Source of the DNA: Candidatus Obscuribacteraceae bacterium
GTDB lineage: Bacteria; Cyanobacteriota; Vampirovibrionia; Obscuribacterales; Obscuribacteraceae
Length of the DNA stretch: 64,000 nucleotides
Assembly: GCA_044229845.1 (NCBI GenBank)
Contig: JBGASG010000002.1
Span: forward strand, 32,001 to 96,000
Direction of reading: 5' to 3'
The notes beneath the pieces were generated by a model that did not search any database, was not told the DNA's origin, and saw only the letters and a program-made list of their open reading frames with translations. Made by a program: the position numbers and the translations under genes. The stretch's first letter is position 1. Each line of letters starts with the position of its first letter. Below are positions 16,795-53,320 of this stretch, piece after piece.

Positions 16795-16853
16795 CAGGTC
16801 ATCTCGAACCTGAAAGCAACATCCCCGGGTTTTTTCAGTTGGAGGACAGGTCT

Positions 16854-18368: not shown

Positions 18369-18494
18369 GAAGTTCGGTTTCACGAATTTTCCACAGACAT
18401 GCCATAACCTACGGATACCCCACCTGCATAGTTACTACGTACGCCTGTGATTTGCTTGGCGGCCTGCACGGCGTAGATATGGTGGGGTATCCCT

Positions 18495-20558: not shown

Positions 20559-20649
20559 AACATACACAAATTGTTCACGAGTCTGTCCGAACTAATTCGG
20601 GTGTCTGCTGATACATTGCCGGCATTACCAGCAGTTGACTCGTTGTTTC

Positions 20650-22275: not shown

Positions 22276-22336
22276 AACTTGCTCTACAGAAGCGCGTCTT
22301 TTGGTTTAGCGAGTATGAATAGCCGCAGGATGTGCG

Positions 22337-22957: not shown

Positions 22958-23089
22958 CGCACCGACAACCCACCGGCTTATTGCTATTCTTCAAGCATCC
23001 TCCGTAACACCTTCGTCACTGCATTTTTGTGGTGTGGTATGTCGCGCGCGCCCCTAGCCGCTTACACGCCGCCTACAGGAAGCTTTACT

Positions 23090-25492
23090 ATGACTACAAA
23101 ACCGACCGACGCGCCCCTGACTGGCGGCGCGAAACAGGCCGATTCCCCTCAACTCAATCTAGTTGACCTGTCTGCGACAGCCGATAATTTAGCCCTGCCG
23201 GATGCTCCGCCCCGCGCCGCGGAATCCTCGCGGCTGATGCCCGGAGCGGACGTGGCAAGCGATGGCTCGATCACGTTCACGCCCGACACCAGCATGTCCG
23301 CAGAAAAGCCAGACAAGCCCAGAGTCGTTAAAGACGACAAGGGACACGTCACTGAAGTCAATTACCCCGACGGCTCCGCGCGTCGATTCGGCTACGCCGA
23401 CGACGGCACCGTCAATCGCGTCCAGGAGCCAGACGGTCGCGTTTTCGTGCTAAAAGACGGCAAATGGGAAGAAACCGAAAACAGCAAACATCGTCCCGGC
23501 GGGGCACCGCCTGGACAGGGCGGTCCCTCTAATAAACCGGAAAATCACGACCCGCCATTCGTCTCCATTTCAGTTGCAGACGACGGAACAGTCAGCTACA
23601 AGACGAAGGACGGGTGTGATGTCCGCGACTACCCGGACGGCTCAAGCGATACCCGCAACGAGAAATCCGGCTACATCGTGCATAAAGATACGGATAATTC
23701 AGTGGACTTTGTCATCACGGGCGCCGGCGACATGGTCATCGTACACCGCGACGCCAACGGCAGGCCCGACAAAGTCACGCTCGACATGATGCACACCTAT
23801 CATCTGGAAAACGGCAAATGGGTGACGGCCGACGGCAGTCCTGCACCAGTCAGTGAACTGGAAGTGTGGAACGACGGCACAATTACTTACGTCGACGGCG
23901 CCACTGGTGCCTGGGTCTCCAAGCGTCCTGATGGAACCAAAGCCGTCAGGCAAGGAAACGGCGATCGCATCGAAACCAACGCGCGTGGTCAGGTCGTCGA
24001 AACTCAATCCGGCAACTTTCAGATAAACAGAAAGTTCACCTATGACGACCAGGGCAACCTCACCGCCGTCATCAGCGACGACGGGTCAAAGATAGAAAAG
24101 GATGCCGACGGCAACTGGCACGACAAAGACGGCAACGAAATTGAAAACGTAACGGTAGATGCGGACGGCACCATCCACTACGTGAATGATGACGACAAGT
24201 TGGTGACGCTCAAAGTCGATGGCAGCACCACGACCACTTCGATGGACGCAGACGACATCGAAGACCTGGCGCACCAGATTGGTGTCGCCGGTGACATGCC
24301 GTCGATGCTCAAGTACCAGCAACTCGACGAAATCAAAGATCAGCTCGAAGACATGTCGCCAGCCGATCGACTGGCGCTGGAGAAAGCATACGAAGCGCGC
24401 TACGGCAGGAAACTCACCGACGACCTCAAGGAAAACTTCGGTGCAGACAACGTCGCGGATGTCGTCAAAGATCTGGAAGTCGCGCGGCTGCTCGACGACG
24501 CTCGCCAGCGCATGAGTGACTCCGAGTACCAGCAATTCGTTACTGACCTGAACAAGTTTTTGCAACGCGCCAAGACAGACGGGATCAGTGACCAGCAAAT
24601 AGGCGACACGCTCGACGCGTTCGACAAATTGTTGACCGAACCGCAAGCGAAATTAGATGCGAAGCAGCGCAAAGGACTGGCGCTACAAATGATGGGTTTC
24701 GCCGCTGACCCGAGCAGCATCGATCAAGGGAGCCACGGAACATGCGCCGCGAACGATGTGGAAGTGATCACGTGGACGCGGCATCCAGAGAATGCCGCCG
24801 GGTTGATCGCGCAAGTCGCTATCGAAGGCAAGTACACCGCCACCGATGGCCACGAGGTTATGGTGCCACCAGAGAATCTGATTCCGCAACCCGGAACCGA
24901 AGGTCGAACCAACACCGACCAGCGCATGTTTGCATCGCAGATTTTCCAGGCGACAGTACTGTGCGACATCGGTTCCCGACGCGAGCCACCGGTGTACTAC
25001 AAACAGGGACAGCCGTCACCAGGCAACAGCAACGGCGAGTACTGGGTCGATGAAAACGGCAAGGAAGTCGGGCCCTTCAAAGGACTGGTTCCGCGTGATA
25101 CCGTCGATGAATTGCTGCGACTCAACGATGATGAAGGGCAGTATTTCATTTACTCCGACTCGTGGGGAACCAGCCATGTCATCACATTCAACAGTGAAGA
25201 AGAACTGCGCGAAGAGTTGGCGGAAGCCAAGGAAGACGGACAGTTCCCGATCATCATTCACGTTTGCTCCGATGATAAGTTGTTCAATCCGTCGGCGAAG
25301 CCCGGCGATTTCAAGAAACGCGACCACGTCGTCGTAATTGATGACTACAACCCGGAGACCGGTCAAGTGAGGATCGACAACAGCTGGGGCGATGAAGATG
25401 ACAAATGGGTCGACGTAGCGGATCTATATCAAGCGACGGTTCCCTACACGCCACCACCTAAGGACCAGAACTACAATCGACCAGCCGCTTGA
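23090..25492 (+). CDS. YD-repeat protein with annexin-like helix motif and C-terminal papain-like Cys protease
   Basis: DDKGHVTEVNYPDG..RFGY; IDQGSHGTC (Cys codon 24743), DHVVVI (His 25325) and IDNSWG (Asn 25379). Confidence 0.8.
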   Translation: MTTKPTDAPLTGGAKQADSPQLNLVDLSATADNLALPDAPPRAAESSRLMPGADVASDGSITFTPDTSMSAEKPDKPRVVKDDKGHVTEVNYPDGSARRFGYADDGTVNRVQEPDGRVFVLKDGKWEETENSKHRPGGAPPGQGGPSNKPENHDPPFVSISVADDGTVSYKTKDGCDVRDYPDGSSDTRNEKSGYIVHKDTDNSVDFVITGAGDMVIVHRDANGRPDKVTLDMMHTYHLENGKWVTADGSPAPVSELEVWNDGTITYVDGATGAWVSKRPDGTKAVRQGNGDRIETNARGQVVETQSGNFQINRKFTYDDQGNLTAVISDDGSKIEKDADGNWHDKDGNEIENVTVDADGTIHYVNDDDKLVTLKVDGSTTTTSMDADDIEDLAHQIGVAGDMPSMLKYQQLDEIKDQLEDMSPADRLALEKAYEARYGRKLTDDLKENFGADNVADVVKDLEVARLLDDARQRMSDSEYQQFVTDLNKFLQRAKTDGISDQQIGDTLDAFDKLLTEPQAKLDAKQRKGLALQMMGFAADPSSIDQGSHGTCAANDVEVITWTRHPENAAGLIAQVAIEGKYTATDGHEVMVPPENLIPQPGTEGRTNTDQRMFASQIFQATVLCDIGSRREPPVYYKQGQPSPGNSNGEYWVDENGKEVGPFKGLVPRDTVDELLRLNDDEGQYFIYSDSWGTSHVITFNSEEELREELAEAKEDGQFPIIIHVCSDDKLFNPSAKPGDFKKRDHVVVIDDYNPETGQVRIDNSWGDEDDKWVDVADLYQATVPYTPPPKDQNYNRPAA

Positions 25493-26809: not shown

Positions 26810-27112
26810 ACCTGCTGACCTGCCCCCATATTTAGTGCCAATCTAATTTGAGAATTCGGCATTATTCTTGACTCTTGATTCATGGTAAACCGCATGGCTG
26901 CTGCGAAAGTCAGACGGCGTCTGGAAATCCAAAACTGGCGTCGTCTAAAATTAGACTCCTCGTTCCAGCTGCTCAATTCGAGAGGTAAGGACAGGAAAGT
27001 TGCGGCGGATTTTGGACCCCATTGGAATCGCACTCGCACCAACCAATTCCGACTGCGAAATTGCACAGCAGCCTTCTCTTAGGCGCCGGATATCTTGAAC
27101 GAGCGCAATCGA

Positions 27113-27532
27113 CTATCTATCGCTCAGCCTCACAAAATCGCCCACCTCAACGCGGTCGAATTCGTTCTGAGAAACGATAATTTCCTCAGTGGTGGTTGGA
27201 TTGGCCCATCCGATGCCGATATACGGCGTCGGATGAATGACCTTTTTCCTCACTTGCGTTTCCGGCTTCCGGTCGATGCTACGCAGGGTTGCCATTTTTG
27301 ACTGAACATGAATCACCTCACCCCTACCTCGGAGCAGCTCCAACCGTCCGAGCGACTTTCTTGAGACAGGATCTACTACATCCGGTCCAATCCCGAAAAC
27401 CAAGTACTTCTGCTTCAATTTGACACCGCTTTCTTGCCCAATGTTGATTACGATTTCCTGGATGGCTCCGTCTGGCGATTGTAAAATACTAGCAACTCGC
27501 CCTTGAGCAGCATGTTCCGACTTGTCAGTCAT
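27113..27532 (-). CDS. Small beta-barrel protein, FlgT C-terminal-like
   Basis: IVINIG.ESGVK...YLVF..G..VVDP.S..SLG and V.VGD.V; the ATG overlaps the end of the upstream gene. Confidence 0.6.
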   Translation of the reverse strand: MTDKSEHAAQGRVASILQSPDGAIQEIVINIGQESGVKLKQKYLVFGIGPDVVDPVSRKSLGRLELLRGRGEVIHVQSKMATLRSIDRKPETQVRKKVIHPTPYIGIGWANPTTTEEIIVSQNEFDRVEVGDFVRLSDR

Positions 27533-28118
27533 CAGTTTCTTCTCCACTGGCTTCGATTGGCCTAGCTACTCTAGATTGACTCTCCCATATGTCGTGAGAG
27601 ATATTAGGCTTCACAACGATAGCTTCCAGCGCTTGCTTGTCATTCAACATTATCATGTCCCACGTGTTGGCCCTTTCTTGGAAGGCCACCGAAACAGTGA
27701 TTTGAATCAATCTTTCCTCCGGCTGGACGACCGAGACCCAACCGATCCCAATCTGCGTTTCAAATCGCTGCGCGTCTTTGTGAAACACGCTAACCATATC
27801 TCCCACCGAAAATAAGTCTGACTGCTCAAGCGCCAATACAAGGTAGGGAATCTTGTAGCTCTGAAGCACCCGGGGGAAGTGGCCCCTTTTAGACTCCTTT
27901 CGGGTAACCAATAGCAAATCCCAGAGGATAATTATGATACTGGTAAACCCAAAAACAAGAAAAATCGCCCCGAGGATAAGCCATCTAGCCTCAACGTGCA
28001 CCATTTTGCTCGGGTCGATAAGCATTGCCCAGAAAGCAAGTAGAAACGCCATATCGACGACAAGCGCTAGCTTGATTCTTTTGAGCGAGTCCCACAAGCT
28101 CGAAAGCAAATTCGGCAC
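27525..28118 (-). CDS. Two-TM membrane protein with C-terminal beta domain
   Basis: Two hydrophobic helices near the N-terminus; overlaps the downstream gene. Confidence 0.65.
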   Translation of the reverse strand: MPNLLSSLWDSLKRIKLALVVDMAFLLAFWAMLIDPSKMVHVEARWLILGAIFLVFGFTSIIIILWDLLLVTRKESKRGHFPRVLQSYKIPYLVLALEQSDLFSVGDMVSVFHKDAQRFETQIGIGWVSVVQPEERLIQITVSVAFQERANTWDMIMLNDKQALEAIVVKPNISHDIWESQSRVARPIEASGEETDD

Positions 28119-34459: not shown

Positions 34460-35060
34460 ATTGGTAGAGGGTACGAGCATGCAACCGATAAGCGGATTCC
34501 GAGTACAACTCGGCTGACTTATCGTGGGACAGTTCACATCTACAAGCAAGCCGTTCGCCACGTAGCAGGAGGTAGCGAGCGGAGATCTTAACGCAAGCCT
34601 CAGGAGGGCGCTGCGATAAGACTTGCTGACCAGGAACAGGAAGGCACACGTTCGAGCGCATAAACAGAGCAACAGACTATGGCGGTCTGTTCCTCTAACA
34701 CGGGTTGAAGTACATCGAGCAGTTGGCGCTCGTAACTTCACCGATTCGGTTCATGCCGGCACCGCCGGCAGTGCGACTGCATCGGGGTGCATCCGCACAC
34801 CCATCGTTCAAAACGAGTAAACAGGTCAGCTCGGATCACAATCACGTCCAATAAACGAATCAGAGAACCGATTGGCGTCGGTTCCTGTTCGTCCCTGGCG
34901 TGAAAAACATAAAACAACGGATCGGCAGTTCAGCACCGGTCGGTTATGTCCGCATGGAAACAATTTATCTCGATCGTTCGCGACGTAGCAGGAGGTAGCG
35001 AACGGGTTCTGCCGCGCGCTTGTCGAAGCGCACCGCACGCAACATCATCGGGAGTGGAAT
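34460..35060 (+). ncRNA. Putative ~600-nt structured RNA or 5' leader with repeated hairpins
   Basis: About ten hairpins. A 32-nt hairpin is duplicated with only structure-compatible changes. Three CAGGAG loops and three UGGC loops; no credible ORF. Confidence 0.6.
34551..35005 (+). repeat. Dispersed 32-nt hairpin repeat at 34551-34582 and 34974-35005
   Basis: YCGTTCGCSACGTAGCAGGAGGTAGCGARCGG; 29/32 identical by manual alignment. Confidence 0.92.
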
Positions 35061-35064
35061 CACT

Positions 35065-38000
35065 ATGGGCGATCGTGGATTTGAAGGCGTAGTCAGTAAT
35101 ATTGTTCAACAACAGCAAGCTGCTGTATTCGATGTTCCGACACTGTTCGGCAATGGACCGAAAAACATTCCACAAATCGACGCACAAGTGCTCGAGAATG
35201 TAGGTCACGATTCTGTTCTTCAAAGTATGGCCAATTATCGCGTGGCGAGATTGGCGATGGTAACTGCGGATGGCGTCCGCTACTTACCTCAAGGTTTTGC
35301 AAATGCAGTTGAATATAACTTAGACCATCCCGGTGAAATGGCTCTCAAGGTTGGCGTAGCCGCGGGACTGGGACTGGCTATGCGCGCCATCCTGCCGAAG
35401 GCAGGTGCCGCTAAGGCGTTGGCGGGGACAATTATGGGCGCGTTCTTTATAAAAGATGCTGCCAAGCCGATCGTTCAAGGTTGGGCTGATGTGTGGGACA
35501 ACAAGTCGCTCGCCAATCTCGATCGCGCCGGACAGCGCATGGGTGATGGACTCGGCATGTTCGCGTTCGACAGCGCGCTGACCTTACCGGTCGGCATGCT
35601 GGCCGACAAAGCCGCCGGCATGACGCTCACCAAGACGAGCTGGGGCCGCTCGTTCGAACTGGGCAAAGAAAACTTCTACAACTCCGACGCCAGTGCGGTC
35701 GGTCGCTTCTTCAACTGGAGCACCCGCACCGCCGACAACACCAGCACTTATCTCTCGCAGCGCTTGCTGGGCAATGCGCCGCACGAAACACTGACAATAG
35801 ATCAGAAACTGGCGCTGATCGCCGATGCACAGCGCTCACATCTCACCGATGCGCAAGCCGCTCGCGCCGGCACTATAGATGATGCGTTCAAAGCGCAACT
35901 GGAAACACAGCGCCGCTACCGCATGGACATGCCCGATACCATCGAAGGATTGATGGCGGATGTTCCGGTCGGCGAACAAGCAAAGTTTGGTCTGACAAAC
36001 AAGGGGTTGGAAACACGCACCGCAACGACAGCAACTCAACTGGCCGCTGCGGAACTGGAAGCTGGTCTGGTTGCAAAACCGGGGCAGATGGGGCAAGGGC
36101 AAGGATTGTCTCCGGCGCGCTTTGTTGATGAAGGCGCAGGAACCGGTGGTGCAGGCAGGGGCACCGAGACTACTGGGGGCGATGCTCCTGGCACCGGAAC
36201 TGGCGGCAAAGGCACGCCGGTAGACAAACCGCCCGTAGTGGCAGAGCCGCAAGCTCCGCCGCTGCCGACCGGACCGAAGGTGCCGCTGGATGTGCGCGAC
36301 GTCGGCAACATGGCATCAGCCGTACGCGAACGCGCCGGTCAAGTCACCGAATCCGACATGGCAATCGCCGATCTGCGTGAGGGCTGGCAGTCGTCGATGC
36401 GCGCCACCACCCTGGAACCACCAGGACCACCGAAGCTGCCGCTGCTCGATCGCGGTCACTTCGAAAACAACAAAAATCTCATCGAGTTGGCGGATCAAAT
36501 TCGCACTCCGGAGCAGGTTAAGGAAGCCGGTTTCCTCATGGAACACTTCCGCGTCGCCAACCAGCAACTCGTCTTGAACGAGAAGTTGCCTGAGATCGTC
36601 GATCTGAACAACTACTCGCGTTCAGTCCACAACAAATTGATGGAGCTGTTGGTCAAAAATGGCGTCAAGCCGGAAGAAGTTCTGCGCGGCACCAACTCTC
36701 CGATGTTCCTGATCTTCGATTCACGCGCCGCGGGTCCCTACACCATTCCGGCGATCAAAGGCGTCACCGACACACCGGTGGTGGTGCTCCCGCGCGAATA
36801 CCAGAACATGCTGGGCGTGCACGTGGCAGGCGTCTACCCGCACGAACTGGGACACGATCTTATATATGGCGACTTGCTGCGTTTTCCAGAAACCCTGCGC
36901 AATAAAGTGCTCACCGAAGACGTTGTCTCGGCCGGCATGAAACAAGCAGGCATCCCCGACGTTCCGGTGAACGTCCCCGGTCACGGACTGATGCAAAAGA
37001 GCGAACTCTTCGTGCGCTTGCTGCAAGCTCAAGCCAATGAAAACACAGCAGATTGGTTTGGCACGGCAATCGATCCGAATACTGGTTTGTCGCTGGCGGT
37101 GCTCCTCGGCTCTCTCCGCAAACCTCTACCCGGTGCGCCGGCGGGAGCCGCGGGAGCTTTAGAAACCCGCAGCATGTACGGCAGCGAGTTTGCCGATCCG
37201 ACCAATCCGCTCGGCATCGAGCCGCACGGAATCGACAGATGGCGTCTGAAATCGACGGCACAAGTGCTGCGCGAAATGAGCGGCGGCGACAAAGCGATTC
37301 TCGAGCGCGCCACCAACATGGATCGCCTCGCAGAACAGATGGCACGCCCTGGCGAAACATACGCCTGGGCTAACATGGACAAGCCGGGTGAATACTTCGC
37401 AATTCCTCAAAAAGAGTGGGACGCGATTATTCCGGCGATTGTCAAAGCGCAACTCGATACGCCGCTTGACGCACTGAACGGACGCACGCTGCGTCAGGTA
37501 TTCCCTGACATGCGGCAGACCTTCCCGCGCGTCGATGCGCTCGCGGATCAGATGGCGGCTGCGGCTCTGGAAGGACGTCCCACTGTGATGGGCACATTCG
37601 ACAAGTCGGCGCACCGCATCGAAGATGTGTTCTCGGCTGGTCTCTCTGCCTGGGCGAAAGCCATGGAGAAAAATCCGGCGGCCGGTGAAAAAGGACACAT
37701 TGCACCCGACCAACTGATTTCGAATATCAACGCGATTTCGGAAAGTCTGCGCGCCCAATATCGCGGCGACGCGCCAATGCCGATTCCCGGCTTGACCACT
37801 CCCGGCAAGGTGGACTTCGCGACTGCATTCAAGAGACCGTCGTACTTCGTTCAGCAATATCTCGGCAAGGCAGTGGAAGCGCAGCCGCAGATTCGCGAAA
37901 CGGTCGGAAACTGGGAACCCTTCTTCACTCGCTACGTGGGCACGCAACTGGGACTGGCATTCTCAGGTGAAGATCTGCGCCGGCAGCGGGCAGCTAAATT

Positions 38001-38082
38001 CGGGTTCACGATCGACGATCACAGTGCCACCATTACGCCGCCTCCGGGCAGCGAGACGCAACCAAAGCAACGCGGTAATTGA
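35065..38082 (+). CDS. Large toxin-like protein: N-terminal hydrophobic helices, Gly/Pro linker, zincin metallopeptidase domain
   Basis: ALKVGVAAGLGLAMRAILP..AGTIMGAFF; YPHELGHDL, ANENTADWFG and EPHGIDRWR. Confidence 0.78.
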   Translation: MGDRGFEGVVSNIVQQQQAAVFDVPTLFGNGPKNIPQIDAQVLENVGHDSVLQSMANYRVARLAMVTADGVRYLPQGFANAVEYNLDHPGEMALKVGVAAGLGLAMRAILPKAGAAKALAGTIMGAFFIKDAAKPIVQGWADVWDNKSLANLDRAGQRMGDGLGMFAFDSALTLPVGMLADKAAGMTLTKTSWGRSFELGKENFYNSDASAVGRFFNWSTRTADNTSTYLSQRLLGNAPHETLTIDQKLALIADAQRSHLTDAQAARAGTIDDAFKAQLETQRRYRMDMPDTIEGLMADVPVGEQAKFGLTNKGLETRTATTATQLAAAELEAGLVAKPGQMGQGQGLSPARFVDEGAGTGGAGRGTETTGGDAPGTGTGGKGTPVDKPPVVAEPQAPPLPTGPKVPLDVRDVGNMASAVRERAGQVTESDMAIADLREGWQSSMRATTLEPPGPPKLPLLDRGHFENNKNLIELADQIRTPEQVKEAGFLMEHFRVANQQLVLNEKLPEIVDLNNYSRSVHNKLMELLVKNGVKPEEVLRGTNSPMFLIFDSRAAGPYTIPAIKGVTDTPVVVLPREYQNMLGVHVAGVYPHELGHDLIYGDLLRFPETLRNKVLTEDVVSAGMKQAGIPDVPVNVPGHGLMQKSELFVRLLQAQANENTADWFGTAIDPNTGLSLAVLLGSLRKPLPGAPAGAAGALETRSMYGSEFADPTNPLGIEPHGIDRWRLKSTAQVLREMSGGDKAILERATNMDRLAEQMARPGETYAWANMDKPGEYFAIPQKEWDAIIPAIVKAQLDTPLDALNGRTLRQVFPDMRQTFPRVDALADQMAAAALEGRPTVMGTFDKSAHRIEDVFSAGLSAWAKAMEKNPAAGEKGHIAPDQLISNINAISESLRAQYRGDAPMPIPGLTTPGKVDFATAFKRPSYFVQQYLGKAVEAQPQIRETVGNWEPFFTRYVGTQLGLAFSGEDLRRQRAAKFGFTIDDHSATITPPPGSETQPKQRGN

Positions 38083-42913: not shown

Positions 42914-45900
42914 ATGAGTCACGAGAACCAGCACAAAAATCTGCCCAACGATCAAGCCAAAGAGGGCGACAAGCAACCATCCATAACCAGCGCCAAGACT
43001 GCTAACGAAAACATTACCGCCGAGCCGCAGGCACCGAGCTATGAGGCGAAGTTTCACTCATTCTCGAGCAGCAGTGATAGCACTGCCACCACCAGTGATG
43101 ACCAACCTCTCCTCGACTTGATCAAACGAGTGACCGGCGGAGGAAACAATACAGAAAGCCAGGGAAGGGCGGTTTCGGAATTCGCCATCGAAGATGCGGC
43201 ACAGGGAGTGGTGCACACCCATCGCGGCGCCGAACGTCTCGGTGCACAAGCGGAGAAGGCAGCGACCGCCGAGCCCGCGCCGCGCCAGTCATTTCTGGAT
43301 GGCTTGAAGAAAATCTTCGACCACGCCTCGTCGCCGGAAGAGCGCGAGCAGATGCAGAGCGCGTTCTCAATTGATTACATGATGCGCAAAGCAAAAGAAT
43401 TCATCGGCGATGTGCAATCTCTGATCACCGGCAAACCTGTCGCTGTGGAGAAACTGCCATACGACCCCTCTACCGGTGCCGATGTGCAACCACTGCCGTT
43501 TCGTCCGGGAGAGAAGGACTCCCAGCCGGTGCCAATGATCATTCGCGAGCGCATGTCACCCGATGAACCGGAAGCCGCTCGCAGCCTGGGAGTGCAAATC
43601 ACTGAGGCTGTGATAAACGCAGCTGGTGCGGATGCATACAATCCGAGCACCGGCACGTTGCAGAATGACGCCGGCGGCGACACCGCCGAGGACAAATCAG
43701 CAGTGCCACCACGGCCGCCTCGTCCGGGAGAGGAGGACGCTCGCCAGCGGGAAGAAATGATAATCCGCCAGCAGATGTCACCAGGTCAAACCGAATCTCT
43801 TCGACTCGGTGGGCAATTCGCTCAAGCCGCAATCGATGCCACCGGCGCAAATGCATACAATCCGAACGCCGGCACATTGCCGATTGACTCCGCGGGGCGT
43901 CCGAGCACCGCCGAGGACAGATCAACAGTGCGACCACATCCGCCTCGTCCGGGAGAGGAGGACGCTCGGCGGGAGGAAATGATCATCCGCCAGCAGATGT
44001 CACCAGGCGAATCCGAAGCCCGTAGAGTCGGCGGGCAATTCGCTCAAGCCGCAATCGATGCCACCGGTGCACGACCATTCCGTCCGGGCATCGACGACGC
44101 CAAAGTCGAGACGCTGCCGTACAAACCCGGCGACAACGACCAGCCAGTACAACAAATAATTCGCGAACAGATCTCAGCTGACTTTCATGCAATCGGAGCA
44201 CTGGGAAACTCACTATCAGATTTCATAACTCAATCAGGCGACCGGATAGCAGGCGTTGTCCAAAGTGCACTGGACTATGCTCAGGATGGACACAAGAAGG
44301 GCGACAGCGCTCCCGCGAAAACCATTCCTCCCGATGGCAGCCTCCCGCAGTACGAAGCTGCACGCGGCGTGTTCCGCGAATACCTCAAGCATGCTTACTC
44401 GGGCGAGCCGGAGCTAACACACTGCATGGTTAAAGCCGGTTTACGGGAGACCGGGAGGTATGAGAAGCTTGTCGACATTGCAGACAATAATCTTCCCAAA
44501 TCAGCAACGCAGCAGCAGCAAGAAGCTTACGTGAAAGAGATCATTCGCGTAAATGGACTTAAACCGTCAGATGGATTTGCTCCACCTGACTCGGTGCTCT
44601 TGCTGCCTGGACACGATGGGAAAGGACACATCATTGTCAGCATCGGCGGACAGACCGTCACAACGGATCAGAGTAACACACGCGTAATCGATACCGGCGG
44701 ATTCCGCACTACAACCCTCACTTCTGATGGTGAACAACACGCAGGTCCAGGTCCATCAGACGGATTTTTTGTACAGAAGGACAAAAACGGCGCGAAACAT
44801 TTTTTTGAGAGACCAGGCAGCCGCGAATTACAGACGAGCGTTGAACCACACATTCAAGAAGCACATAAGCACCTTCTCGAACTGGCTGCCAAACGGATTT
44901 CAGACCCTGAGGACAGGCTGAAGTTCGAAGTAGATATGGCAAGATTCGAACAGCGGGCCGCCGATGCTCATCTGCCACCAAATTCAGTCGTCGATACCTA
45001 CAAAAACATCGAACGACTTCTCAGCGCAGACCACGGGGCGGGACACATCAATAAGCTGGCGATGATTGACCTGGCAGAAGAAGTGATGTCTCAGGCAGCG
45101 CGACCTCGAACTATCACCCAAGGAGGATTTAAAACTTGCCACGTGACGGCTATCGAGTACCACATGTACCGCTTCGACCCTGCTGAAGCATCCAGACTCG
45201 TCGCAGACGTTGCTTTGACAGGTAGGTTCAAATCATCAGACGGGACATCAATCGATTTCAATGATGGTGGCATTCTAGCAACCAACCTGAATACCAAAGA
45301 ACAGGGCACCGCAGATGGTGAACGGACCCTGGCTACCCAACTCTTCAACGGCACCACGGTAAATCTCGTTTATCAAAAGGAAGGTGGTGAGAAGAAGTAC
45401 GGTCTTGTTACACCCAACAGAAAGGACCATGGCGACTCCGGCGAGCGCCTCTTCGAAGACGGAGTAGAAATTGATCGTGACCCCGACCTGAATGACGATC
45501 AAGTCGTGAGAGCATACCGAATCCTGACTCAGCCGATACAAAAGGCTGGCTCACCGGAACCAGAAAGTGTCTGGAACCAATTACAACGTCGTCATGCTAG
45601 CCATGAGGAAATTGTCGAAACATTGAAGAAGAGTGAGTGTGTCTACATCTGCAACGCTGACCTTGCGACTGGCGACCGCAAACTGGTTGACTTGGTTCAC
45701 AGCGAAAAAGAATTCTGCTCGCTACTTCAGTGTCTTAAAGAAGCCGGTAAGCTTCCAGTGATGCTCGGAGTTCACACAGCCATTGAGCCCTTTTATACGG
45801 ACTCAGAAGGAGAAAAGCTCGGCGGTGCCGGAGGCCCACATGTTGTGACAATCACAAATTTCCAAAACCCACCAGGACTTGTCGCCATCGACAATCAATG

Positions 45901-46324
45901 GTTCTCGATGATGGATCACACATCTACTGACATCTCGCTGCACCAACTATACCTCTCAACCCTGGAGCCAAAAACGGCCTTAAGTGAGATGCAGCAAACC
46001 GCAAGTGCCAATCGCAACCGGAACCAGATTGATACCGAACTTGAGCTTGACATAGCACGTCTACGCCGTCGGACTGAACAAACCGACGATAGTGACTATG
46101 GATGGGATGTCGCAAAACTGATGAAGGAAGCAAAGCTTCGATGGGAAGAACAGAAGAAAAGCCACACGTTCAATCCAGCAGAACAGCAAAGGGCGCTGCG
46201 CAAGTTTAAGCTGATGAGATCAAATTGGCAAAAGGATTCAGAGCGAGCATTTGGCGAGGGCGATTTGAATAACTGGGATAGGATGATGAAACATGGACGC
46301 AAATCGATAAATGATCCGCAATAA
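42914..46324 (+). CDS. Large effector-like protein: internal repeats, LysM-like domain, papain-like Cys protease
   Basis: ITQGGFKTC (Cys 45137), GPHVVTI (His 45839) and IDNQW (Asn 45893); LysM-like segment AYVKEIIRVNGL..LLLPG. Confidence 0.8.
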   Translation: MSHENQHKNLPNDQAKEGDKQPSITSAKTANENITAEPQAPSYEAKFHSFSSSSDSTATTSDDQPLLDLIKRVTGGGNNTESQGRAVSEFAIEDAAQGVVHTHRGAERLGAQAEKAATAEPAPRQSFLDGLKKIFDHASSPEEREQMQSAFSIDYMMRKAKEFIGDVQSLITGKPVAVEKLPYDPSTGADVQPLPFRPGEKDSQPVPMIIRERMSPDEPEAARSLGVQITEAVINAAGADAYNPSTGTLQNDAGGDTAEDKSAVPPRPPRPGEEDARQREEMIIRQQMSPGQTESLRLGGQFAQAAIDATGANAYNPNAGTLPIDSAGRPSTAEDRSTVRPHPPRPGEEDARREEMIIRQQMSPGESEARRVGGQFAQAAIDATGARPFRPGIDDAKVETLPYKPGDNDQPVQQIIREQISADFHAIGALGNSLSDFITQSGDRIAGVVQSALDYAQDGHKKGDSAPAKTIPPDGSLPQYEAARGVFREYLKHAYSGEPELTHCMVKAGLRETGRYEKLVDIADNNLPKSATQQQQEAYVKEIIRVNGLKPSDGFAPPDSVLLLPGHDGKGHIIVSIGGQTVTTDQSNTRVIDTGGFRTTTLTSDGEQHAGPGPSDGFFVQKDKNGAKHFFERPGSRELQTSVEPHIQEAHKHLLELAAKRISDPEDRLKFEVDMARFEQRAADAHLPPNSVVDTYKNIERLLSADHGAGHINKLAMIDLAEEVMSQAARPRTITQGGFKTCHVTAIEYHMYRFDPAEASRLVADVALTGRFKSSDGTSIDFNDGGILATNLNTKEQGTADGERTLATQLFNGTTVNLVYQKEGGEKKYGLVTPNRKDHGDSGERLFEDGVEIDRDPDLNDDQVVRAYRILTQPIQKAGSPEPESVWNQLQRRHASHEEIVETLKKSECVYICNADLATGDRKLVDLVHSEKEFCSLLQCLKEAGKLPVMLGVHTAIEPFYTDSEGEKLGGAGGPHVVTITNFQNPPGLVAIDNQWFSMMDHTSTDISLHQLYLSTLEPKTALSEMQQTASANRNRNQIDTELELDIARLRRRTEQTDDSDYGWDVAKLMKEAKLRWEEQKKSHTFNPAEQQRALRKFKLMRSNWQKDSERAFGEGDLNNWDRMMKHGRKSINDPQ
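43535..44090 (+). repeat. Intragenic ~225-bp tandem repeat, about 2.5 copies
   Basis: MIIRQQMSPG..GGQFAQAAIDATGA..YNP..GTL..TAED.S..PPRPGEEDAR is repeated at protein and DNA level. Confidence 0.88.
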
Positions 46325-47009
46325 ATTGCCCAACCTTTTAATCGTGCTCCTCGCTTCAATCCTCTTGGTCCAATGCGGAACTCAAACCGCAACCGAAAAC
46401 AAGAAAAAAGGAAAAACCCAAGAAATGCCTCTGAAGCCTGCTCTCAAACACGGCATCGCAGGAGTCGGAGCGGTGAGCCGATTTAGAGTTCCGGACAACT
46501 GGGAATTGACCCGCCACGCAGAGGACGCGCGCGGCTACGGTTACACCTGGAAGCCACTCGGGGAAAAGGACGTCTCTCTCAATGTCTCGTGGGACGGCGG
46601 TATTGTGATGCGTCCTCAGCCAATTCAAGAAATTTTGACCCAGGCTCCGCACGCGTTATCACGCGAGGAAATTGAATCAATCAGGAATCTCCTGGGAGAA
46701 AGGGCGTCTGCCGAAGCTTTCAAGGTTGAAACAGCGAAGACCGAGGATGTTTCTGGATATCGCGTTCTGCGACTATCCGGAACTTACACTGATCAAGACG
46801 TCTACGAAGACACAATTTTTGTCAACTCAGGCGGTGATTGCAGCGGCTTCCAAGAGGTTTCTTTTCTCTCGCCTGCCGCCGATGCAGCGAAGTATCGCAA
46901 AGATGCGGATCAAGCGTTCTCTACTTTGAGAATTGAAGAGAGAGTTCCTGTTCCTAAAGATCCGGCAACCGACACCGCCGATGATACCAGCTCTGATTCA
47001 CCGATATAA
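46311..47009 (+). CDS. Exported/lipoprotein-like protein with ~160-aa PsbP/Mog1-like domain; candidate immunity or partner protein
   Basis: Hydrophobic signal ending in LLVQ-C; overlaps the protease stop by 14 bp; F.VP..W, GY.Y.W.P and QEVSF..P. Confidence 0.7.
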   Translation: MIRNKLPNLLIVLLASILLVQCGTQTATENKKKGKTQEMPLKPALKHGIAGVGAVSRFRVPDNWELTRHAEDARGYGYTWKPLGEKDVSLNVSWDGGIVMRPQPIQEILTQAPHALSREEIESIRNLLGERASAEAFKVETAKTEDVSGYRVLRLSGTYTDQDVYEDTIFVNSGGDCSGFQEVSFLSPAADAAKYRKDADQAFSTLRIEERVPVPKDPATDTADDTSSDSPI

Positions 47010-47234
47010 CGGCACCACTGGCGCTACCAGTGAAGACGCCAGTTTGTTCCACTAATTCCGCCGCCTGCATCCGACTGCACATATGCGGTCTGTCCAAGCG
47101 CGCGACAGTTTCTTCGAAGCGAGTCCGACAATGCCAAGTAGAAGGAGCAAAGGCTTGCTTAACCTGCTGTCTGATGACAACGCATCACGGTATACTAGAA
47201 ATCCTGCTTTTAATTAGTTGGAGATGTGTCTGCA

Positions 47235-49829
47235 ATGGGTCGCGACGACGAGAAGCCGAGCAAGAAGAGCGACTCTTTAGTTGGCGGCTTCATGAAGAAG
47301 ACGCAGGGTTTCCTGAAGTCGGCGTTCCAGGGCGACAAGGCGGGTGGCGGCGCGGCGGCGGGGACCGGAAGCGGAGCCGCCGGTGCTTCGACAGCCGACC
47401 TCGACACAGACTCCGGCACGGGCGCCGCCCCGTCGGCAGATAGCGCGACCGCTGGAACAGTTGCGCAAGCCGAAGAAAAATCGGCATCCGGTGACAAACC
47501 GCAGAAAGGCGGTCTGTTGGGCGGCAAACTGCCCGGGCTCGGCGGCGGCAAGGACAAAGACAAGGACAAAGACAAGGACAAAGCCAGCGCCTCGGCAGAA
47601 ACGCTTGAAGACTGGGCAGGACTTCAAGAAGTCATCGATGAAAAGGTGCAAACCCAGGTTTACCAGGAGCAGTCCGAGTCTGCGTACACGGGCGAAAAGC
47701 CCCTCGCCAAGTCGTCCATCCCTCCCGGCACCTACGCAACCAAAGCCGGGGACACATTTTTATCCATCGCCGAACAACACCTCGGTCCCAAATCGAAAAA
47801 GCCCGACCGCGAGGCATACGCGCGAGAAATCCAGCTGATCAACGGATTGCCTCCGGGCAAAGAGCTGCCGCCCAGCCTGCCGCTGGTGCTGCCGGGACAC
47901 ACCAGGGATGGTGGCTTCGTGATTGCCGACGGCGCCAAAACAATCACCAAGTTCCCCAGCGGCGTCAAAGTTTTCGAAAACGAAGACGACCAGCGCAAAG
48001 GCACCCAGACTCCGGGCACAGACGGCAGCTACACCGAAGAACACACCGGTCCGGGCGCCGCCGACAACTATTTTGTTTCGAAGAACGCCGAAGGCGAGTT
48101 TCAGTATTCGGAGAAGTCCGCGAGCGAACCTTACCAACTGATTCAGGACGAAGCGGTGCAAGCCGCTCACCAGAAGTTGCGCGACCTCGCCGACAGGCAC
48201 ATCGTCGAGCAAGCCGAGAAAACCAAGTTCAACGTGGACATGGCGCGCTTCGAAGACCGGGCGACGAAACGAAACCTGGCCAACGCCGCCGTCATCGAGA
48301 CCTACAAACAGATTTCGCGCCTGCTGGAAGCTCCGGTTCCCGGCTTTGGCGATCGGGGGCTGCGCGCGCCCGTCAACAAACGGCTGCAACTGGCGCAAGA
48401 GTTGCTCGCTCAGTCGGCCGAGCCGAAGACTGTTTGTCAGGGCACTTTCAGCCGCGGTAGCCTGGCTGCCATCGAGCACCATGTCTACCTCGCCGATCCC
48501 GCGAAGATCTGCCGGTTGGTGGTCGACATCGCATTGACCGGAAAGTTCACCGCCACCGACGGCACCAGCCACACGATGTCGCCCGAGTCACTGGAGCCAC
48601 AGTCGCAGCCCAACACAGTTGAAGATGGCTTGCGTTCATTCGCCACGCAACTCTTCCAAGTTGCGATTGCCAACCTCGCGCATGAGAGCGTCGGCTTGCG
48701 CAACACGCCGCAGACCCAGGAAGGCGCCGACAAAAAATATTCCATCGAACCGCTCGATCGCTTGCTCGAACAAGACAACGGCGAGCGGCTTTACGACAAG
48801 GTCAACGGCAAGTGGGAATTGACGGGCGAATCGCCCGGGCTCGACGACGACAAGACAATCGGTTGCTACCTTCTGGTCATGGCCCGCGGCGGCGAGACCT
48901 ACAAAGCCGTCAACAGCACCGCCGAAATGATGAAGTGGTTGCCCGGTCGCACTGGCGTCGGTGTCATGATCGGACACGAAGACCACATCTTCGGATTCGG
49001 CAAATTGCTTGATACCATCAGCAGCGAACGCGACCTGATGTACAAAATCTCCGACATCTCAAAATCCAATCGCCTGCCGGTATTTATTAGAGTGCACACC
49101 GGCAACGAACCCTTCTTGTCCGAGTCGGGCAATCAAACCGCCGGCGGTGCAGGCAACTGGCACGTGCTGGCAATCACCTCATACGAACCGAGCGCTGACG
49201 GCAAGCCAGCTTCCGTCACCATCGACAATCCCTGGCGCGCACGTGCGGAACAACGCAGTGCGACTCTGACTCTGCCCGAATTGCACAAGTCCACCACCTT
49301 GCCTGAGAGAGTCGAGCCGGTATCCGGAAGCGCCGTTTCTAACCTCGGTGCAATCGAAAGCTTCACCGTCCCGGAAGGCTGGAACCTTGGGCGCCGCTCG
49401 GAGCGCGCCTACGGCTACATCTATGCATGGCAGCCGCAGGCACAGACAAACGTCTCACTCAACATCAGCTATCGCGGTCGCCCGCTTTCCGATGCCGATG
49501 CAGCCAAGTTAAAATCAACACTCTCCGGCGGACCGCGCACGCTCTCATCCCATGAAGTTCACGCTCTCAGTGGCACGGTCCGCGAACTGGCAAGCTCCTC
49601 TGCGTTCACTATCAACTCGGCCAAAGTCATCGACGTGGACGGCGTCGCAGCGCTGGAAGTCACCGGCGCATACAAAGATCAATATGTCGACAAGCACGCA
49701 CTGTTCATCAACGCCGACGGCGCCGGTCGCATTGTGCAAGAGATCTCATACATCGCACCGCGCGACAAATATGCAAACTTCGTCGCGACTGCAAAATCAG
49801 CACTGGCATCTCTAAAGCTGAAGAAGTAG
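47235..49829 (+). CDS. LysM-like + catalytically altered papain-like domain fused to the PsbP-like partner domain
   Basis: Colinear with 42914-46324 but QGTFSRG replaces QGGFKTC; WHVLAI and IDNPW are retained. The C-terminal ~160 aa align with 46311-47009. Confidence 0.8.
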   Translation: MGRDDEKPSKKSDSLVGGFMKKTQGFLKSAFQGDKAGGGAAAGTGSGAAGASTADLDTDSGTGAAPSADSATAGTVAQAEEKSASGDKPQKGGLLGGKLPGLGGGKDKDKDKDKDKASASAETLEDWAGLQEVIDEKVQTQVYQEQSESAYTGEKPLAKSSIPPGTYATKAGDTFLSIAEQHLGPKSKKPDREAYAREIQLINGLPPGKELPPSLPLVLPGHTRDGGFVIADGAKTITKFPSGVKVFENEDDQRKGTQTPGTDGSYTEEHTGPGAADNYFVSKNAEGEFQYSEKSASEPYQLIQDEAVQAAHQKLRDLADRHIVEQAEKTKFNVDMARFEDRATKRNLANAAVIETYKQISRLLEAPVPGFGDRGLRAPVNKRLQLAQELLAQSAEPKTVCQGTFSRGSLAAIEHHVYLADPAKICRLVVDIALTGKFTATDGTSHTMSPESLEPQSQPNTVEDGLRSFATQLFQVAIANLAHESVGLRNTPQTQEGADKKYSIEPLDRLLEQDNGERLYDKVNGKWELTGESPGLDDDKTIGCYLLVMARGGETYKAVNSTAEMMKWLPGRTGVGVMIGHEDHIFGFGKLLDTISSERDLMYKISDISKSNRLPVFIRVHTGNEPFLSESGNQTAGGAGNWHVLAITSYEPSADGKPASVTIDNPWRARAEQRSATLTLPELHKSTTLPERVEPVSGSAVSNLGAIESFTVPEGWNLGRRSERAYGYIYAWQPQAQTNVSLNISYRGRPLSDADAAKLKSTLSGGPRTLSSHEVHALSGTVRELASSSAFTINSAKVIDVDGVAALEVTGAYKDQYVDKHALFINADGAGRIVQEISYIAPRDKYANFVATAKSALASLKLKK

Positions 49830-49850
49830 ATTACGCCTGCGGGCTTACTG

Positions 49851-52325
49851 CTACTGCCCCGATGCAAACACATCTCCCTCACCTGTCGTTCTCGGGAACG
49901 GCACGGAACTGCGCGAGTACGAGTAGTTATTGCTTGGAACATATTTGATCAGCTTGACCGGTTCAGGAATGTTTTGCACCGTCTCGATCGCGTGGCGCAA
50001 CTTGCCTTTCGCATTGTCGGCTGCGTATAACTGCATCAATCGCACAAATTGCACGCTAACCTCATAAGAGCCATCGCTCTGCCGCACGCGCTTCTCCAGT
50101 AGTTTACGCGCGTCCGCACGCTTGCCGTGTTTCTCCAGCAGGTCGACATAGCGCAACAGCTCATCGCGATAAGACCATTCGTCCTCGGCGACCAGATCGA
50201 ACAGCCGCTTGTACGCGACAAGCGCTTCTTCGTCTCGTCCATTGTCCTGATAGCAGCAGGCCAGATCGGCTAAAGTTGACGCCAACAATACGTCATCTTT
50301 ACCCCATGCTTCCTGGCGAATTTGCAGTTCTCTCCGCAGAGGGGCAATTGCCTTCTGCCCTTCGATGCGCGTCACACGGCGCAAGCATTCCTCTTTGTAA
50401 TGGTTGTCCAGATCCGATATCGCGGAGGTAAATTGGTAAAAGTTACCAGTGGTGTCGCGATCGAAATACACGTGCGCTGCTTCTAAGTTGCCGTCCTCCA
50501 GAGCTCGACAAGCGAGCGCCACCATCGTATCGTTTTCCTCAGGCAGATATCCCAGCTTCACCAAAGTGGGAGCGAGATCATCAACTTCGGGGTTCAGCGC
50601 GCCTGCATTGCCGTAATGATAATCAGCCAACTCGAAGTAATGAAGCGCTTTCTCAGGAGGCAGCGCCTGTCCCAACTCAGTATTTGCCCGACCGGCATAA
50701 TAGCTGATCTCCTGATCATTGAAGTCCTTCAAGAAACCAGCGGCCACTTTCGCGCATTGCGCATACATTTTCTTTTCGAATAGAGTGCGCACCTTTTCAC
50801 GCGCAGCATCCTGAGGGTCAAGCAACTTTTCGGGGTCGCTCTGCTGCAACCACAGTTGAGCCATTTGCGCCACCAGCATCATTTCATATGAGCGGTAGCT
50901 GGTGCCGTGTTCATAATACTTGCTCGCCGCTTCATAGTGTTTGAGAGCCTCTTCTCTCATGGCATTGCGAGCTTTATCATTGCTGGATTCGTACACCTGA
51001 GCAGCGAGAGAATCAGCCACTTGCCAGTGCAACTCAGCTTGCAAACTGGGCGGCTTGTGGAGAGATTCGGACAGCGCGAGAGCCTGTTTCCACGCGGCGG
51101 ATTCCTCGGGGCGATGACTGCTGCCTGCCAGCTGGGCCGCATCGATCGATTTCTGCAACTGCAGTTCGCCCATGTACTTCTGACAGACCAGTCCGAGCAG
51201 AAGATACGCGCACATGCAGACAACGATCTTCTTGTCGAAGAAATCGAGAAACCTGAAAAGCAAGAGCTTCTCCGCCTTGGGCGGCAGCTTGCGCGTCACA
51301 CCGTTGCAGATGCAATCGGAAACCATGCGCAACGCATCCATCAACTCGCGCACGTTTCGAAAGCGCTTCGCCGGTTTCTTCTGCAAACACTTGATGATTA
51401 TGCAATCAAGCAACTTCAGCGCGTTATACTCCGGCGTGTCCTTGCCGTGCTGACTAGCCAGTTCGTGCAGATAGCCAGCGGACGCATGACCCGACTGATC
51501 GCCGACAAATGGCGGTCTGCCGACCAGCGATTCATACATCAGGCAACCCAGCGAATAAATATCCGAGCGTTCGCTGACGCGGTTGCGGTCGAGACACTGT
51601 TCAGGACTGAGATAAAATGCGTTTTGCACCGGGTCCGGTGGCATGCCAAAATCGATCAGCTTGACCAATTCGGCATCGGTATCTTCTTGATGAACAACAA
51701 TCACTTTGTTCGGCGAGAGGTTGCCGTGCACCAGCTGGTGCGAATGTGCTTCCCCGAGAGCTTCGCAAACCTGCATGAACACATTGAGAAACGTGGCGAT
51801 GTCCAGGCGTTTCGTGACCAGAAAAGTCTCGGCGAGGGTCTCGCCCTCGACCCAATCCTTCACCACATATGGTGCGCCGTCGTCGCCGACACCACACTCG
51901 TACACGGTGACATGGTTGACGTGAGTCAGTTCCGATGCACGTTGCGCCGCCTTCTTGATATTGCGCACCTGGGCGCTGTCGGTCAATCTGGCATTGAATA
52001 CGCGCAATGCGAAGATGCCGTCCATGCCGTCGCGTTTCGCCGCCCATGTGGTGCTGAGCGCATCGCGACACAACTCCCACACGAGCTCATAACTCCCGAA
52101 ACGCTGCACCGGCTCGCGGGCGTCACCGCAGGTTTCTTCCTGAGGCTTTCCGCCGCTTTCATGACTAACTGGTGGCGCAACCAATTTTATGGCTGCGCCG
52201 CCCGTACTTGGTTCGGGTTCGCTGTCTTCGTCGACGCTATGGAGAGATTCGCTGGGAAAACCGGTCTCGGACACCAGGGCGACACCAGGCCGCTGGTCGT
52301 GGCTTGCTCGACTTTTTCTTGTCAT
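49851..52325 (-). CDS. Ser/Thr pseudokinase with TM helix and TPR region
   Basis: Kinase-fold motifs DFG, YLSPEQ and SDIYSLG are present, but the Gly loop is lost, VAIK is FALR and HRD is HGN. Confidence 0.85.
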   Translation of the reverse strand: MTRKSRASHDQRPGVALVSETGFPSESLHSVDEDSEPEPSTGGAAIKLVAPPVSHESGGKPQEETCGDAREPVQRFGSYELVWELCRDALSTTWAAKRDGMDGIFALRVFNARLTDSAQVRNIKKAAQRASELTHVNHVTVYECGVGDDGAPYVVKDWVEGETLAETFLVTKRLDIATFLNVFMQVCEALGEAHSHQLVHGNLSPNKVIVVHQEDTDAELVKLIDFGMPPDPVQNAFYLSPEQCLDRNRVSERSDIYSLGCLMYESLVGRPPFVGDQSGHASAGYLHELASQHGKDTPEYNALKLLDCIIIKCLQKKPAKRFRNVRELMDALRMVSDCICNGVTRKLPPKAEKLLLFRFLDFFDKKIVVCMCAYLLLGLVCQKYMGELQLQKSIDAAQLAGSSHRPEESAAWKQALALSESLHKPPSLQAELHWQVADSLAAQVYESSNDKARNAMREEALKHYEAASKYYEHGTSYRSYEMMLVAQMAQLWLQQSDPEKLLDPQDAAREKVRTLFEKKMYAQCAKVAAGFLKDFNDQEISYYAGRANTELGQALPPEKALHYFELADYHYGNAGALNPEVDDLAPTLVKLGYLPEENDTMVALACRALEDGNLEAAHVYFDRDTTGNFYQFTSAISDLDNHYKEECLRRVTRIEGQKAIAPLRRELQIRQEAWGKDDVLLASTLADLACCYQDNGRDEEALVAYKRLFDLVAEDEWSYRDELLRYVDLLEKHGKRADARKLLEKRVRQSDGSYEVSVQFVRLMQLYAADNAKGKLRHAIETVQNIPEPVKLIKYVPSNNYSYSRSSVPFPRTTGEGDVFASGQ

Positions 52326-52675
52326 GTTTTGTTTGTCTACTAAGGGTGGAGGAGAGAGGAGCGAAGGCTCCGTCGTTGAATGGCGTCGAGTATATTGCCA
52401 GGTTGCCAAGGGGCAAATAGGGTTAACACTGGATTTGGACACCCCGGACCAGAACGGACGCAACTCACGCGAATAATTGATGTTTTTCGCGTGTCGTCGA
52501 TGGCGCCGAGCAGACCCACCGGGCATCCCGGAGCCTACGAGCGCCCCAGGGAAGTCTGATGAGTGATAACCGTCACCCTCGGGCACATAGTTAATATCGG
52601 CAGGATTGATTGTGCAGGCGAACACAATTAATATTGACAACTAATTCCTCACGTCATTTATGGAGCCAGACGACC

Positions 52676-53320
52676 ATGGCAGGAGCCGGGGAACAAGACA
52701 TCCCTAAACCCAGAAAAATCGGCGGCGGCGACGAAACCGGCGACGCAGCGATTAACCAGAAGGTCCAGAAGGAATCCGGCGACGCCCCTCCGGCGACGCC
52801 ACCCACCGAGGTCACCGATGCCGGTGCCAAAAACCTCGGCGCCATCACATCTCTGGACGCTCCGGCTGATTTCAAACTGACCACCAAGGTGGATACAGCC
52901 CTGGGCTACACATATATGTGGACGCCGCCCGGACGCAAGGACGTTTCCGTCAGCGTCAGCAGCCGCGCACAAGATCTGAACGCCAACGACACCAAAACAC
53001 TCAACGACATTCTCGCCAAACCAGATGGCTACGTGCTCAGTCCGCAAGAGATCCAGTCGCTGCAAGGGCTTTTGCGCGAGAAAGCGGATCCCAGCAAATT
53101 CACTACTTCGCTCGTGTACGTCCGCGAAATCGAAGGCAAGAAAGTCTTGAGCCTCGCAGGCGAATATGACAAAGAGAAAATCCACAACGAAACGCTGTAC
53201 ATCCCGGCTAACAGGTCAGGCAGCGCCATCCAGGAAGTCGCATACCAGGCTCCCATCGGAGTCAATCGCTGGGGCGACGCAGCCGGCAAGTCGATGGATT
53301 CGATCAAACTGAAGAACTGA
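52676..53320 (+). CDS. Orphan PsbP-like partner-domain protein, no signal peptide
   Basis: NLGAI, GYTYMWTP, DVSVSVS, LS..EI.SL, G..VL.L.G.Y and QEVAY.AP match the two other copies; RBS GGAG. Confidence 0.78.
   Translation: MAGAGEQDIPKPRKIGGGDETGDAAINQKVQKESGDAPPATPPTEVTDAGAKNLGAITSLDAPADFKLTTKVDTALGYTYMWTPPGRKDVSVSVSSRAQDLNANDTKTLNDILAKPDGYVLSPQEIQSLQGLLREKADPSKFTTSLVYVREIEGKKVLSLAGEYDKEKIHNETLYIPANRSGSAIQEVAYQAPIGVNRWGDAAGKSMDSIKLKN

Follow-up and report, generated by a model that had tools for sequence, protein, structure and literature searches.

The window analysed here is a 64,000-nucleotide stretch of a Candidatus Obscuribacteraceae genome (assembly GCA_044229845.1, 88% complete, denoted G000; contig JBGASG010000002.1, positions 32,001 to 96,000 of the forward strand). 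Between positions 42,914 and 53,320 it carries four genes, A to D, in which a papain-like protease domain and a small partner domain occur as a two-gene pair (A and B), as a fusion (C) and as an orphan partner (D) (Table 1). A sequence-only reading of the window had placed the four open reading frames (ORFs) at the same coordinates and had proposed an effector/inhibitor or a protease/sensor system. None of the four proteins has a match in Pfam, NCBIfam or PADLOC. Gene A begins with a hydrophilic leader in which no signal peptide is predicted, and its ORF overlaps that of gene B by 14 bp. Both this overlap and the Q-x5-C/H/N-x-W triad noted earlier are confirmed, the active-site pattern of A being Q736-x5-C742, H976 and D-N994-x-W996.

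A structure model of A residues 641-1024, built on an 84-sequence alignment (predicted local distance difference test, pLDDT, 91.8), consists of three helices followed by a papain-like core in which the Cys opens helix 102-114, the His opens strand 335-344 and the Asn closes strand 349-353 of the model. The triad columns are at least 90% conserved across the 84 sequences, and 112 of 114 unique protease domains keep both Cys and His. Foldseek found no match for this model in PDB or viral structures, and the fold was resolved only by a wide structure search, in which many clan CA members matched over model residues 70-379. The matches include Alr0975 phytochelatin synthase (Z 8.9, 167 residues aligned, top), ComA (8.0, 127), calpain-1 (7.9, 196), UfSP1 (7.8), streptopain (7.7), the contact-dependent inhibition (CDI) toxin 8ssm (7.3) and staphopain C (7.2). 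Because these moderate Z-scores agree with the triad, the modelled domain is firmly assigned to the papain fold (clan CA), as proposed earlier from the letters, and is predicted to hydrolyse peptide bonds; the fold also spans transglutaminases, amidases and phytochelatin synthase, the top structural match. Sequence comparison placed the domain in none of the named peptidase families C1, C2, C39, Tox-PL and Cpe1. A Pfam search over the 84 domains gave no Tox-PL match and, at best, Peptidase_C39_2 in 6 members (E 0.0099); A match to caricain is weak (E 0.029), and at the sequence level 8ssm is not matched even at E≤10.

The partner domains of B, C (residues 701-864) and D align with one another at 30-33% identity (E≤9e-22), and seven motifs listed in the sequence-only reading are present in all three copies; chance similarity was rejected. 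Their fold, previously assigned by eye, is recovered by a model (pLDDT 96.7; Foldseek E 1e-4, probability 1.00) that matches CyanoP (Z 13.1, 140 residues aligned), EagT6 (11.8), DcrB (9.5) and SciW (7.3), as well as the immunity proteins TplEi (9.4), Tsi3 (7.4) and PA3488 (6.4), the last three at 4-12% identity. The partner domains belong to one PsbP/Mog1-fold family, for which a Pfam search of 18 members gave no DcrB/DUF1795 match. A photosystem role was rejected, the likeness being one of fold only. The PsbP/Mog1 fold serves both chaperones and immunity proteins and is therefore compatible with either role. Protease and partner profiles show no homology to each other.

We surveyed a class-wide sample of 150 other genomes, 32 from the order Obscuribacterales and 118 from elsewhere in the class. 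The protease occurs in 32/32 genomes of the order and the partner in 30/32, each in 0/118 of the remainder; the phyletic ranges of the two match, and the co-occurrence expected by the sequence-only reading is borne out. Neither computational outcome that would have refuted that reading, a missing papain fold or a partner absent beside the protease in other genomes, was observed. The order was named through named relatives, 53 of 59 named loci being titled Obscuribacterales, Obscuribacter or Melainabacteria. In the window genome we counted 14 ORFs with the protease and 16 partner domains; partner matches reach 17 per genome, and 2,307 protein clusters (50% identity) match the protease profile.

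Partner genes lie mostly behind proteases. In loci selected for a partner (90 loci drawn from the 150 best of 357 matches, without de-duplication of rows), a same-strand protease immediately precedes 88 of the 101 partner ORFs; of the remainder, 1 is fused and 12 show neither arrangement. A wider set of loci gave 114 unique partners, of which 95 follow a protease, 2 follow another partner, 1 is fused, 15 are orphans and 1 sits at a contig edge. The distance matrices of 84 protease/partner pairs correlate at r 0.74, compared with at most 0.15 in 500 shuffles. The partner accompanies the protease domain across different N-termini: among 161 representative carrier proteins, LysM is present in 57 and others carry RHS, FHA or annexin. 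The presence of LysM in both A and C is in line with the sequence-only reading; its LysM-targeted description is too narrow for the family, in which LysM is one architecture of several. In one locus of G000 (L018:4356-6976) a protease paralog is shortened by a frameshift and its partner gene is intact.

None of the 161 carriers has a signal peptide (0/161), a marginal hydrophobic segment occurs in 2/161, and all 14 protease carriers of the window genome start hydrophilic (14/14; 7-23% hydrophobic residues, compared with a genome median of 33%). In most carriers the protease domain ends the protein or leaves only a short tail behind it, the median being 128 residues. Giant carriers (P0024-P0028) have several or internal protease copies with further enzyme domains behind them, and two further giants (L108:2509-9501 and L101:4716-9599) combine FHA, the family protease and PRTase-CE, with a dual-specificity phosphatase added in L108.

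Comparison with G001, a sister genome of the same genus, revealed one clear case in which the C-terminal cassette of A is exchanged together with the downstream gene. The flanks are 97.5-99.3% identical to the window, and the segment holding the LysM, protease and tail of A plus gene B (Table 1) is replaced in G001 by 3.3 kb. This DNA encodes a frameshift-broken protease sharing 28-37% identity with A, together with a fragmented partner gene and a second one that has an N-terminal hydrophobic segment. The cassette has a GC content of 50-51% (0.50-0.52 at third codon positions, GC3), and the flanking coding DNA 58-60% (GC3 0.60-0.71). The ortholog P0001 represents a third allele, 85-86% identical ahead of the cassette and 53-66% inside it. 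Direct repeats of ~77% DNA identity lie in A just ahead of the cassette edge (43484-44071).

The N-terminal domain of A, a putative trafficking domain, heads 8 ORFs of G000 including A, and their ends differ; the other 7 end in JAB-like, caspase-like or kinase-like domains, recognised from motifs by eye and a weak Prok-JAB match (E 0.007). Behind four of these other carriers lie membrane-protein genes (three cases) or five kinase-like paralogs (one case). The former are the tandem genes at L175:3000-9750, with JAB-like or caspase-like ends and each followed by a hydrophobic membrane-protein gene, an arrangement like that of toxin-immunity pairs. The latter, at L178:1263-13076, is a 2319-residue protein with the A N-terminal domain, annexin repeats and, by eye, a kinase-like end, followed by five tandem kinase-like paralogs of 322 residues. 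A common N-terminus with a variable C-terminal enzyme is the architecture of polymorphic toxins (PMC3482391), and A shows the behaviour of a polymorphic effector.

Gene C, described earlier as a colinear paralog of A with a fused partner, has the dead protease and the fusion; its colinearity with A (A 454-1064 with C 107-732, 31% identity, E 6e-84) spans LysM to protease only, C having no counterpart of the first ~450 and last ~115 residues of A. Gly408 replaces the catalytic Cys while H643 and N665 are retained, and C is the sole Cys-less domain among the 114. Sequencing error was rejected, as the same residue is found in G001 and in the ortholog P0083, and decay was rejected, as the dead core is 93% identical to that of P0083 (LysM 98%, N-terminus 67%, partner domain 75%). 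G001 carries C and D at 99-100% identity. D is indeed a signal-less stand-alone copy, with the qualification that it lies behind, and divergent from, an opposite-strand Ser/Thr kinase-TPR gene for which no tie to the module was seen at the locus.

C-type fusions occur in 2/104 genomes at E≤1e-40, plus P0083; a second natural fusion, P0048, known from the protein alone, retains an intact triad. In FastTree trees of the two domains, the proteases of A and C group as sisters (support 0.95), and B, the partner domain of C, D, the anchored partner of G001 and another anchored orphan form one clade (0.905). Given this sisterhood, the single partner clade and the rarity of C-type fusions, the trio of arrangements is a local, genus-level elaboration of an order-wide two-gene module, and a reading of the three arrangements as a conserved system was rejected in favour of local duplication.

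We give about an even chance to the reading that A is an exported polymorphic protease effector and B its cognate, non-obligatory inhibitor. The shared N-terminal domain and hydrophilic leader would carry an exchangeable C-terminal cassette ending in the protease; B would bind this protease and most likely inhibit it, guarding the producer or its kin, and would be inherited and swapped with it. Most partners of the family are signal-less and would do their work in the cytoplasm, ahead of export, as staphostatins do. In the local clade the partner would have been moved, B being probably a periplasmic lipoprotein placed where the LysM-bearing protease would act, with D staying signal-less. C, which joins the partner to a conserved dead protease, would be a binding scaffold or decoy. 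We favour inhibition because the partner tracks the protease domain and not the N-terminus, travels with the protease and forms orphans, and because the same fold is used by TplEi, Tsi3 and PA3488 and two natural fusions exist, one with an intact triad.

Several observations weigh against an effector with a dedicated inhibitor. An adjacent partner is found behind 10/14 proteases of the window genome, 41/60 in protease-selected loci and 7/42 in a hand-picked set whose selection favours solo genes. Solo proteases are intact in 23 of 24 cases and scattered on the tree (20 changes, compared with 22 in shuffles), and no substitute gene was seen behind those of the hand-picked set; a cognate gene is thus not found behind essentially every intact protease. 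One genome of the order (G024) has 4 protease matches and zero partner matches at 1e-5. Distant stand-alone protease homologs, mostly of 400-500 residues, occur in 45/200 genomes of a phylum sample, and those of other classes have no partner match in the 5/5 genomes tested and none in 12 loci. Conversely, two partners stand directly behind large ORFs without a protease match (L052 and L103). Linkage and tree correlation can be explained by co-inheritance alone and are therefore no proof of binding. The hydrophobic N-terminus is confined to 3/114 partners, all in the one clade that includes B, so that the exported partner of the sequence-only reading is an exception; several partners, D among them, carry a hydrophilic leader like those of the proteases, and the closer fold matches include the chaperones EagT6 and DcrB. 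The effector half of the earlier proposal is strengthened by the polymorphism; its inhibitor half is weakened by the many intact proteases without an adjacent partner.

A side observation attaches to several of these cases. The two large ORFs without a protease match (L052:2013-3494 and L103:2-6991) include one that ends in an HE-x-x-H domain and one RHS giant. One gene behind a solo protease (L195:3831-4937) has a Pfam match to ATLF-type metallopeptidases and an effector-like leader. Loci L228, L231 and L233, from other classes of the phylum, hold tandem distant homologs of 400-540 residues with Ser/Thr/Pro-rich leaders and without partner genes. In a covariation analysis of 93 pairs (effective number 64), the top pair, Asp963 of A and Arg131 of B, reached z 6.3, with control maxima of 6.0 for neighbour swaps and 5.4 for random pairs. 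The export of B is suggested by its N-terminal sequence; the public gene call P0017 starts B at residue 39 and thus lacks the signal, and two orthologs, P0018 and P0019, retain a hydrophobic stretch ending in LLVQC.

The partner could instead be an adaptor, chaperone or co-exported cofactor that helps to fold, export, aim or activate the effector against non-kin, be they other bacteria or eukaryotes, useful but dispensable. This is possible, though we lean away from it. PsbP/MOG1 proteins have been proposed as toxin adaptors (PMC3482391), and the fold is closest to PsbP, EagT6, DcrB and SciW. Such a helper would fit the frequent absence of a partner, which outside the order extends to all 5 genomes tested, the effector-like leaders of some partners and the intact fusion P0048, which suits a helper more than a blocker. 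It fits less well with the carriers, of which none has the signal and only 2 the marginal hydrophobicity expected of Eag-type clients, with the absence of TssC from the 61 genomes searched, or with the three lipoprotein or membrane-anchored partners of one clade, a poor place for a cytoplasmic chaperone. Orphan and tandem gene copies are typical of immunity genes, and the partners show both (15/114 and 2/114).

Two further explanations appear improbable to us. If the protease were mainly an auto-processing domain that frees other parts of large exported proteins, with the partner timing the cleavage, the giants with several or internal copies ahead of further enzyme domains (P0024-P0028, L101 and L108) would be accounted for, and papain-like domains are described in both roles (PMC3482391); yet the domain mostly ends its carrier or has a short tail, and in A no enzyme is recognised behind the protease, which is itself the part exchanged. 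The module might also belong to an own-cell regulatory or envelope-remodelling system, a protease plus sensor in which C would act as a pseudo-enzyme receptor, with a possible connection to the adjacent kinase. The dead domain of C is better conserved than its N-terminus and partner domain, C and D are nearly unchanged in G001 although the A/B slot there holds a broken cassette, and FHA domains occur in some carriers. Conflict-type behaviour speaks against this: the cassette is exchanged and low in GC, the G001 allele has decayed and copy number varies widely. In addition, C-type fusions are rare, and no signal peptide would take the protease to the envelope by the Sec route. Apart from the conserved dead fusion, nothing directly supports the protease/sensor alternative of the sequence-only reading.

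How an effector of this kind would leave the cell was approached with one marker per secretion system in 61 genomes. TssC, which marks a type VI secretion system (T6SS), was found in 0/61, FlhA/SctV in 1/61, VirB4 in 2/61 and the Tad-type secretin N domain in 58/61; in G000 no VgrG, WXG100, VirD4 or sheath match was found. That these searches identified no delivery system weighs against a plain toxin/immunity pair. The VirB4 matches are in G005 and G024, the two order genomes without a partner match in the class sample, and amount to two cases only. Tad-type secretins are the only near-universal candidate found for a signal-less export route, their link to the module being only a co-occurrence. 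The presence of PsbP/MOG1 beside a toxin has been taken to indicate a T6SS (10.1101/2025.01.14.632903), which does not hold here. We consider it rather doubtful, if worth stating, that the module is an order-wide arsenal with the papain-fold protease as its chief enzyme, delivered by an undescribed signal-less route, with the partner a co-exported or re-localised regulator and the dead fusion a decoy or sensor for rival alleles.

Table 1. Features of the protease/partner locus and one further family member, in window coordinates.
Feature	Position	Strand	Content or basis
Gene A, 1136 aa	42914..46324	+	Leader, N-terminal domain, repeats, LysM, helical bundle, papain-fold protease, helical tail
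A N-terminal domain, ~residues 10-175	42941..43438	+	Common to 7 other ORFs of the same genome
Exchanged cassette: LysM, protease and tail of A, plus gene B	44382..47123	+	Comparison with G001
A degenerate LysM, residues 518-567	44465..44614	+	Profile E 7e-8, 4-protein search; no direct Pfam match
A three-helix pre-domain and papain-fold protease, residues 641-1024	44834..45985	+	Model, fold matches, triad columns
A catalytic codons	Cys742 45137-45139; His976 45839-45841; Asn994 45893-45895	+	Conserved triad columns
Gene B, 232 aa	46311..47009	+	Hydrophobic signal and PsbP/Mog1-fold domain
B hydrophobic signal ending in Cys22	46311-46376	+	Probable lipoprotein
B PsbP/Mog1-fold domain	46455-46940	+	Structure model, Foldseek and wide-search matches
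Gene C, 864 aa	47235..49829	+	LysM, pseudo-protease, fused partner domain
C LysM, residues 166-222	47730-47900	+	Profile of 10 homologous LysM stretches
C pseudo-protease	48138-49319	+	Gly408 (48456-48458) in Cys position
C fused partner domain	49335-49826	+	Alignment with B and D
Ser/Thr kinase-TPR gene between C and D	49851..52274	-	ORF start possibly up at 52640
Gene D, 214 aa, orphan	52676..53320	+	Hydrophilic leader, then partner domain 52826-53317
Further family member	23039..25492	+	RHS repeats and intact protease, no adjacent partner

A promoter and terminator scan gave no signal above shuffled sequence. Positions 44038-52500 lie without any difference in a single contig of one DNA run, which may have been the source of the window. 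At low depth, RNA contigs from three studies touch A, the A/B junction, C, the kinase gene and D in short stretches, which is no proof of transcription. Elsewhere in the window, an effector-like cluster (11995-25492) comprises an RHS and LysM protein (11995-15105), a clostripain-family C11 peptidase (20713-22272), a dual-specificity phosphatase (22358-22954) and the partnerless RHS protease of Table 1. Just past the latter, a segment of 49% GC (26201-27869) holds three short ORFs without Pfam matches, and a 1020-residue ORF at 35020-38082, with no Pfam match, hydrophobic N-terminal helices and HE-x-x-H, may be a metallopeptidase effector.

Obscuribacterales are uncultured or little-studied bacteria of sludge, soil and water, non-photosynthetic relatives of cyanobacteria whose lifestyle is obscure. 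The 2,307 protease clusters would give them a large conflict arsenal and constitute a new protease family; if the favoured reading or the adaptor alternative is true, the PsbP/Mog1 fold would have a new task, that of protease inhibitor or adaptor. The shared N-terminal domain offers a way to list further effectors, and the allele swap and local paralogs B, C and D are ready tests of specificity. The puzzle is how signal-less effectors fit an order in which the usual markers of injection systems did not turn up.

Among known systems, Eag/DUF1795 chaperones (EagT6, SciW) and DcrB share the partner fold and, like the partner, are encoded next to an effector. Membership of the Eag family calls for a T6SS in the genome and a transmembrane-bearing client, and was rejected: there is no DcrB/DUF1795 match, no T6SS marker and no transmembrane client. 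The partner gene lies downstream; compared with EagT6, DcrB and SciW, whose alignments start only at residue 24-25, its product has additional strands at the N-terminus and an inserted helical part. TplEi, Tsi3 and PA3488 likewise use the PsbP fold to neutralise a cognate enzyme, the cognate effectors being T6SS lipases or a muramidase and not proteases. Staphopain- and Bfp-type proteases are Sec-exported zymogens, whereas those described here have no signal peptide and have large, variable N-termini; no staphostatin is among the 50 partner structure matches listed. The likeness to staphopain-staphostatin and Bacteroides Bfp-Bfi lies in paralogous papain-clan proteases with a small partner beside only some of them, staphostatin-like genes accompanying 2 of 4 Bacteroides C10 proteases (PMC2873492).

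Tox-PL polymorphic toxins resemble the module in their shared N-terminus, RHS, variable end, exchange, linked partner and orphans; our proteases have no Tox-PL match in Pfam and often no partner, the partner falls outside the immunity families listed in the accessible part of PMC3482391, and no secretion system listed there was found. Cpe1-Cpi1 (PDB 8ssm) also pairs a terminal papain-fold Cys protease with a small cognate gene behind it, and 8ssm_A matches the A model over 124 residues (Z 7.3). According to PMC12136450, Cpe1 is compact, C39-like, uses Cys-His-Asp and is delivered by T6SS or CDI, and Cpi1 has no structural homolog; here the protease spans ~300 residues with Cys-His-Asn and Trp and a helical pre-domain, beside a PsbP-fold partner and without a T6SS marker. 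We found no description of the protease/partner pair in openly readable articles; domains of this kind might be listed in the supplements to PMC3482391 and to the Lipocone paper. By the comparisons above, the pair is not a member of the Cpe1, Tox-PL, staphostatin or Eag systems, yet it works like known effector-partner pairs.

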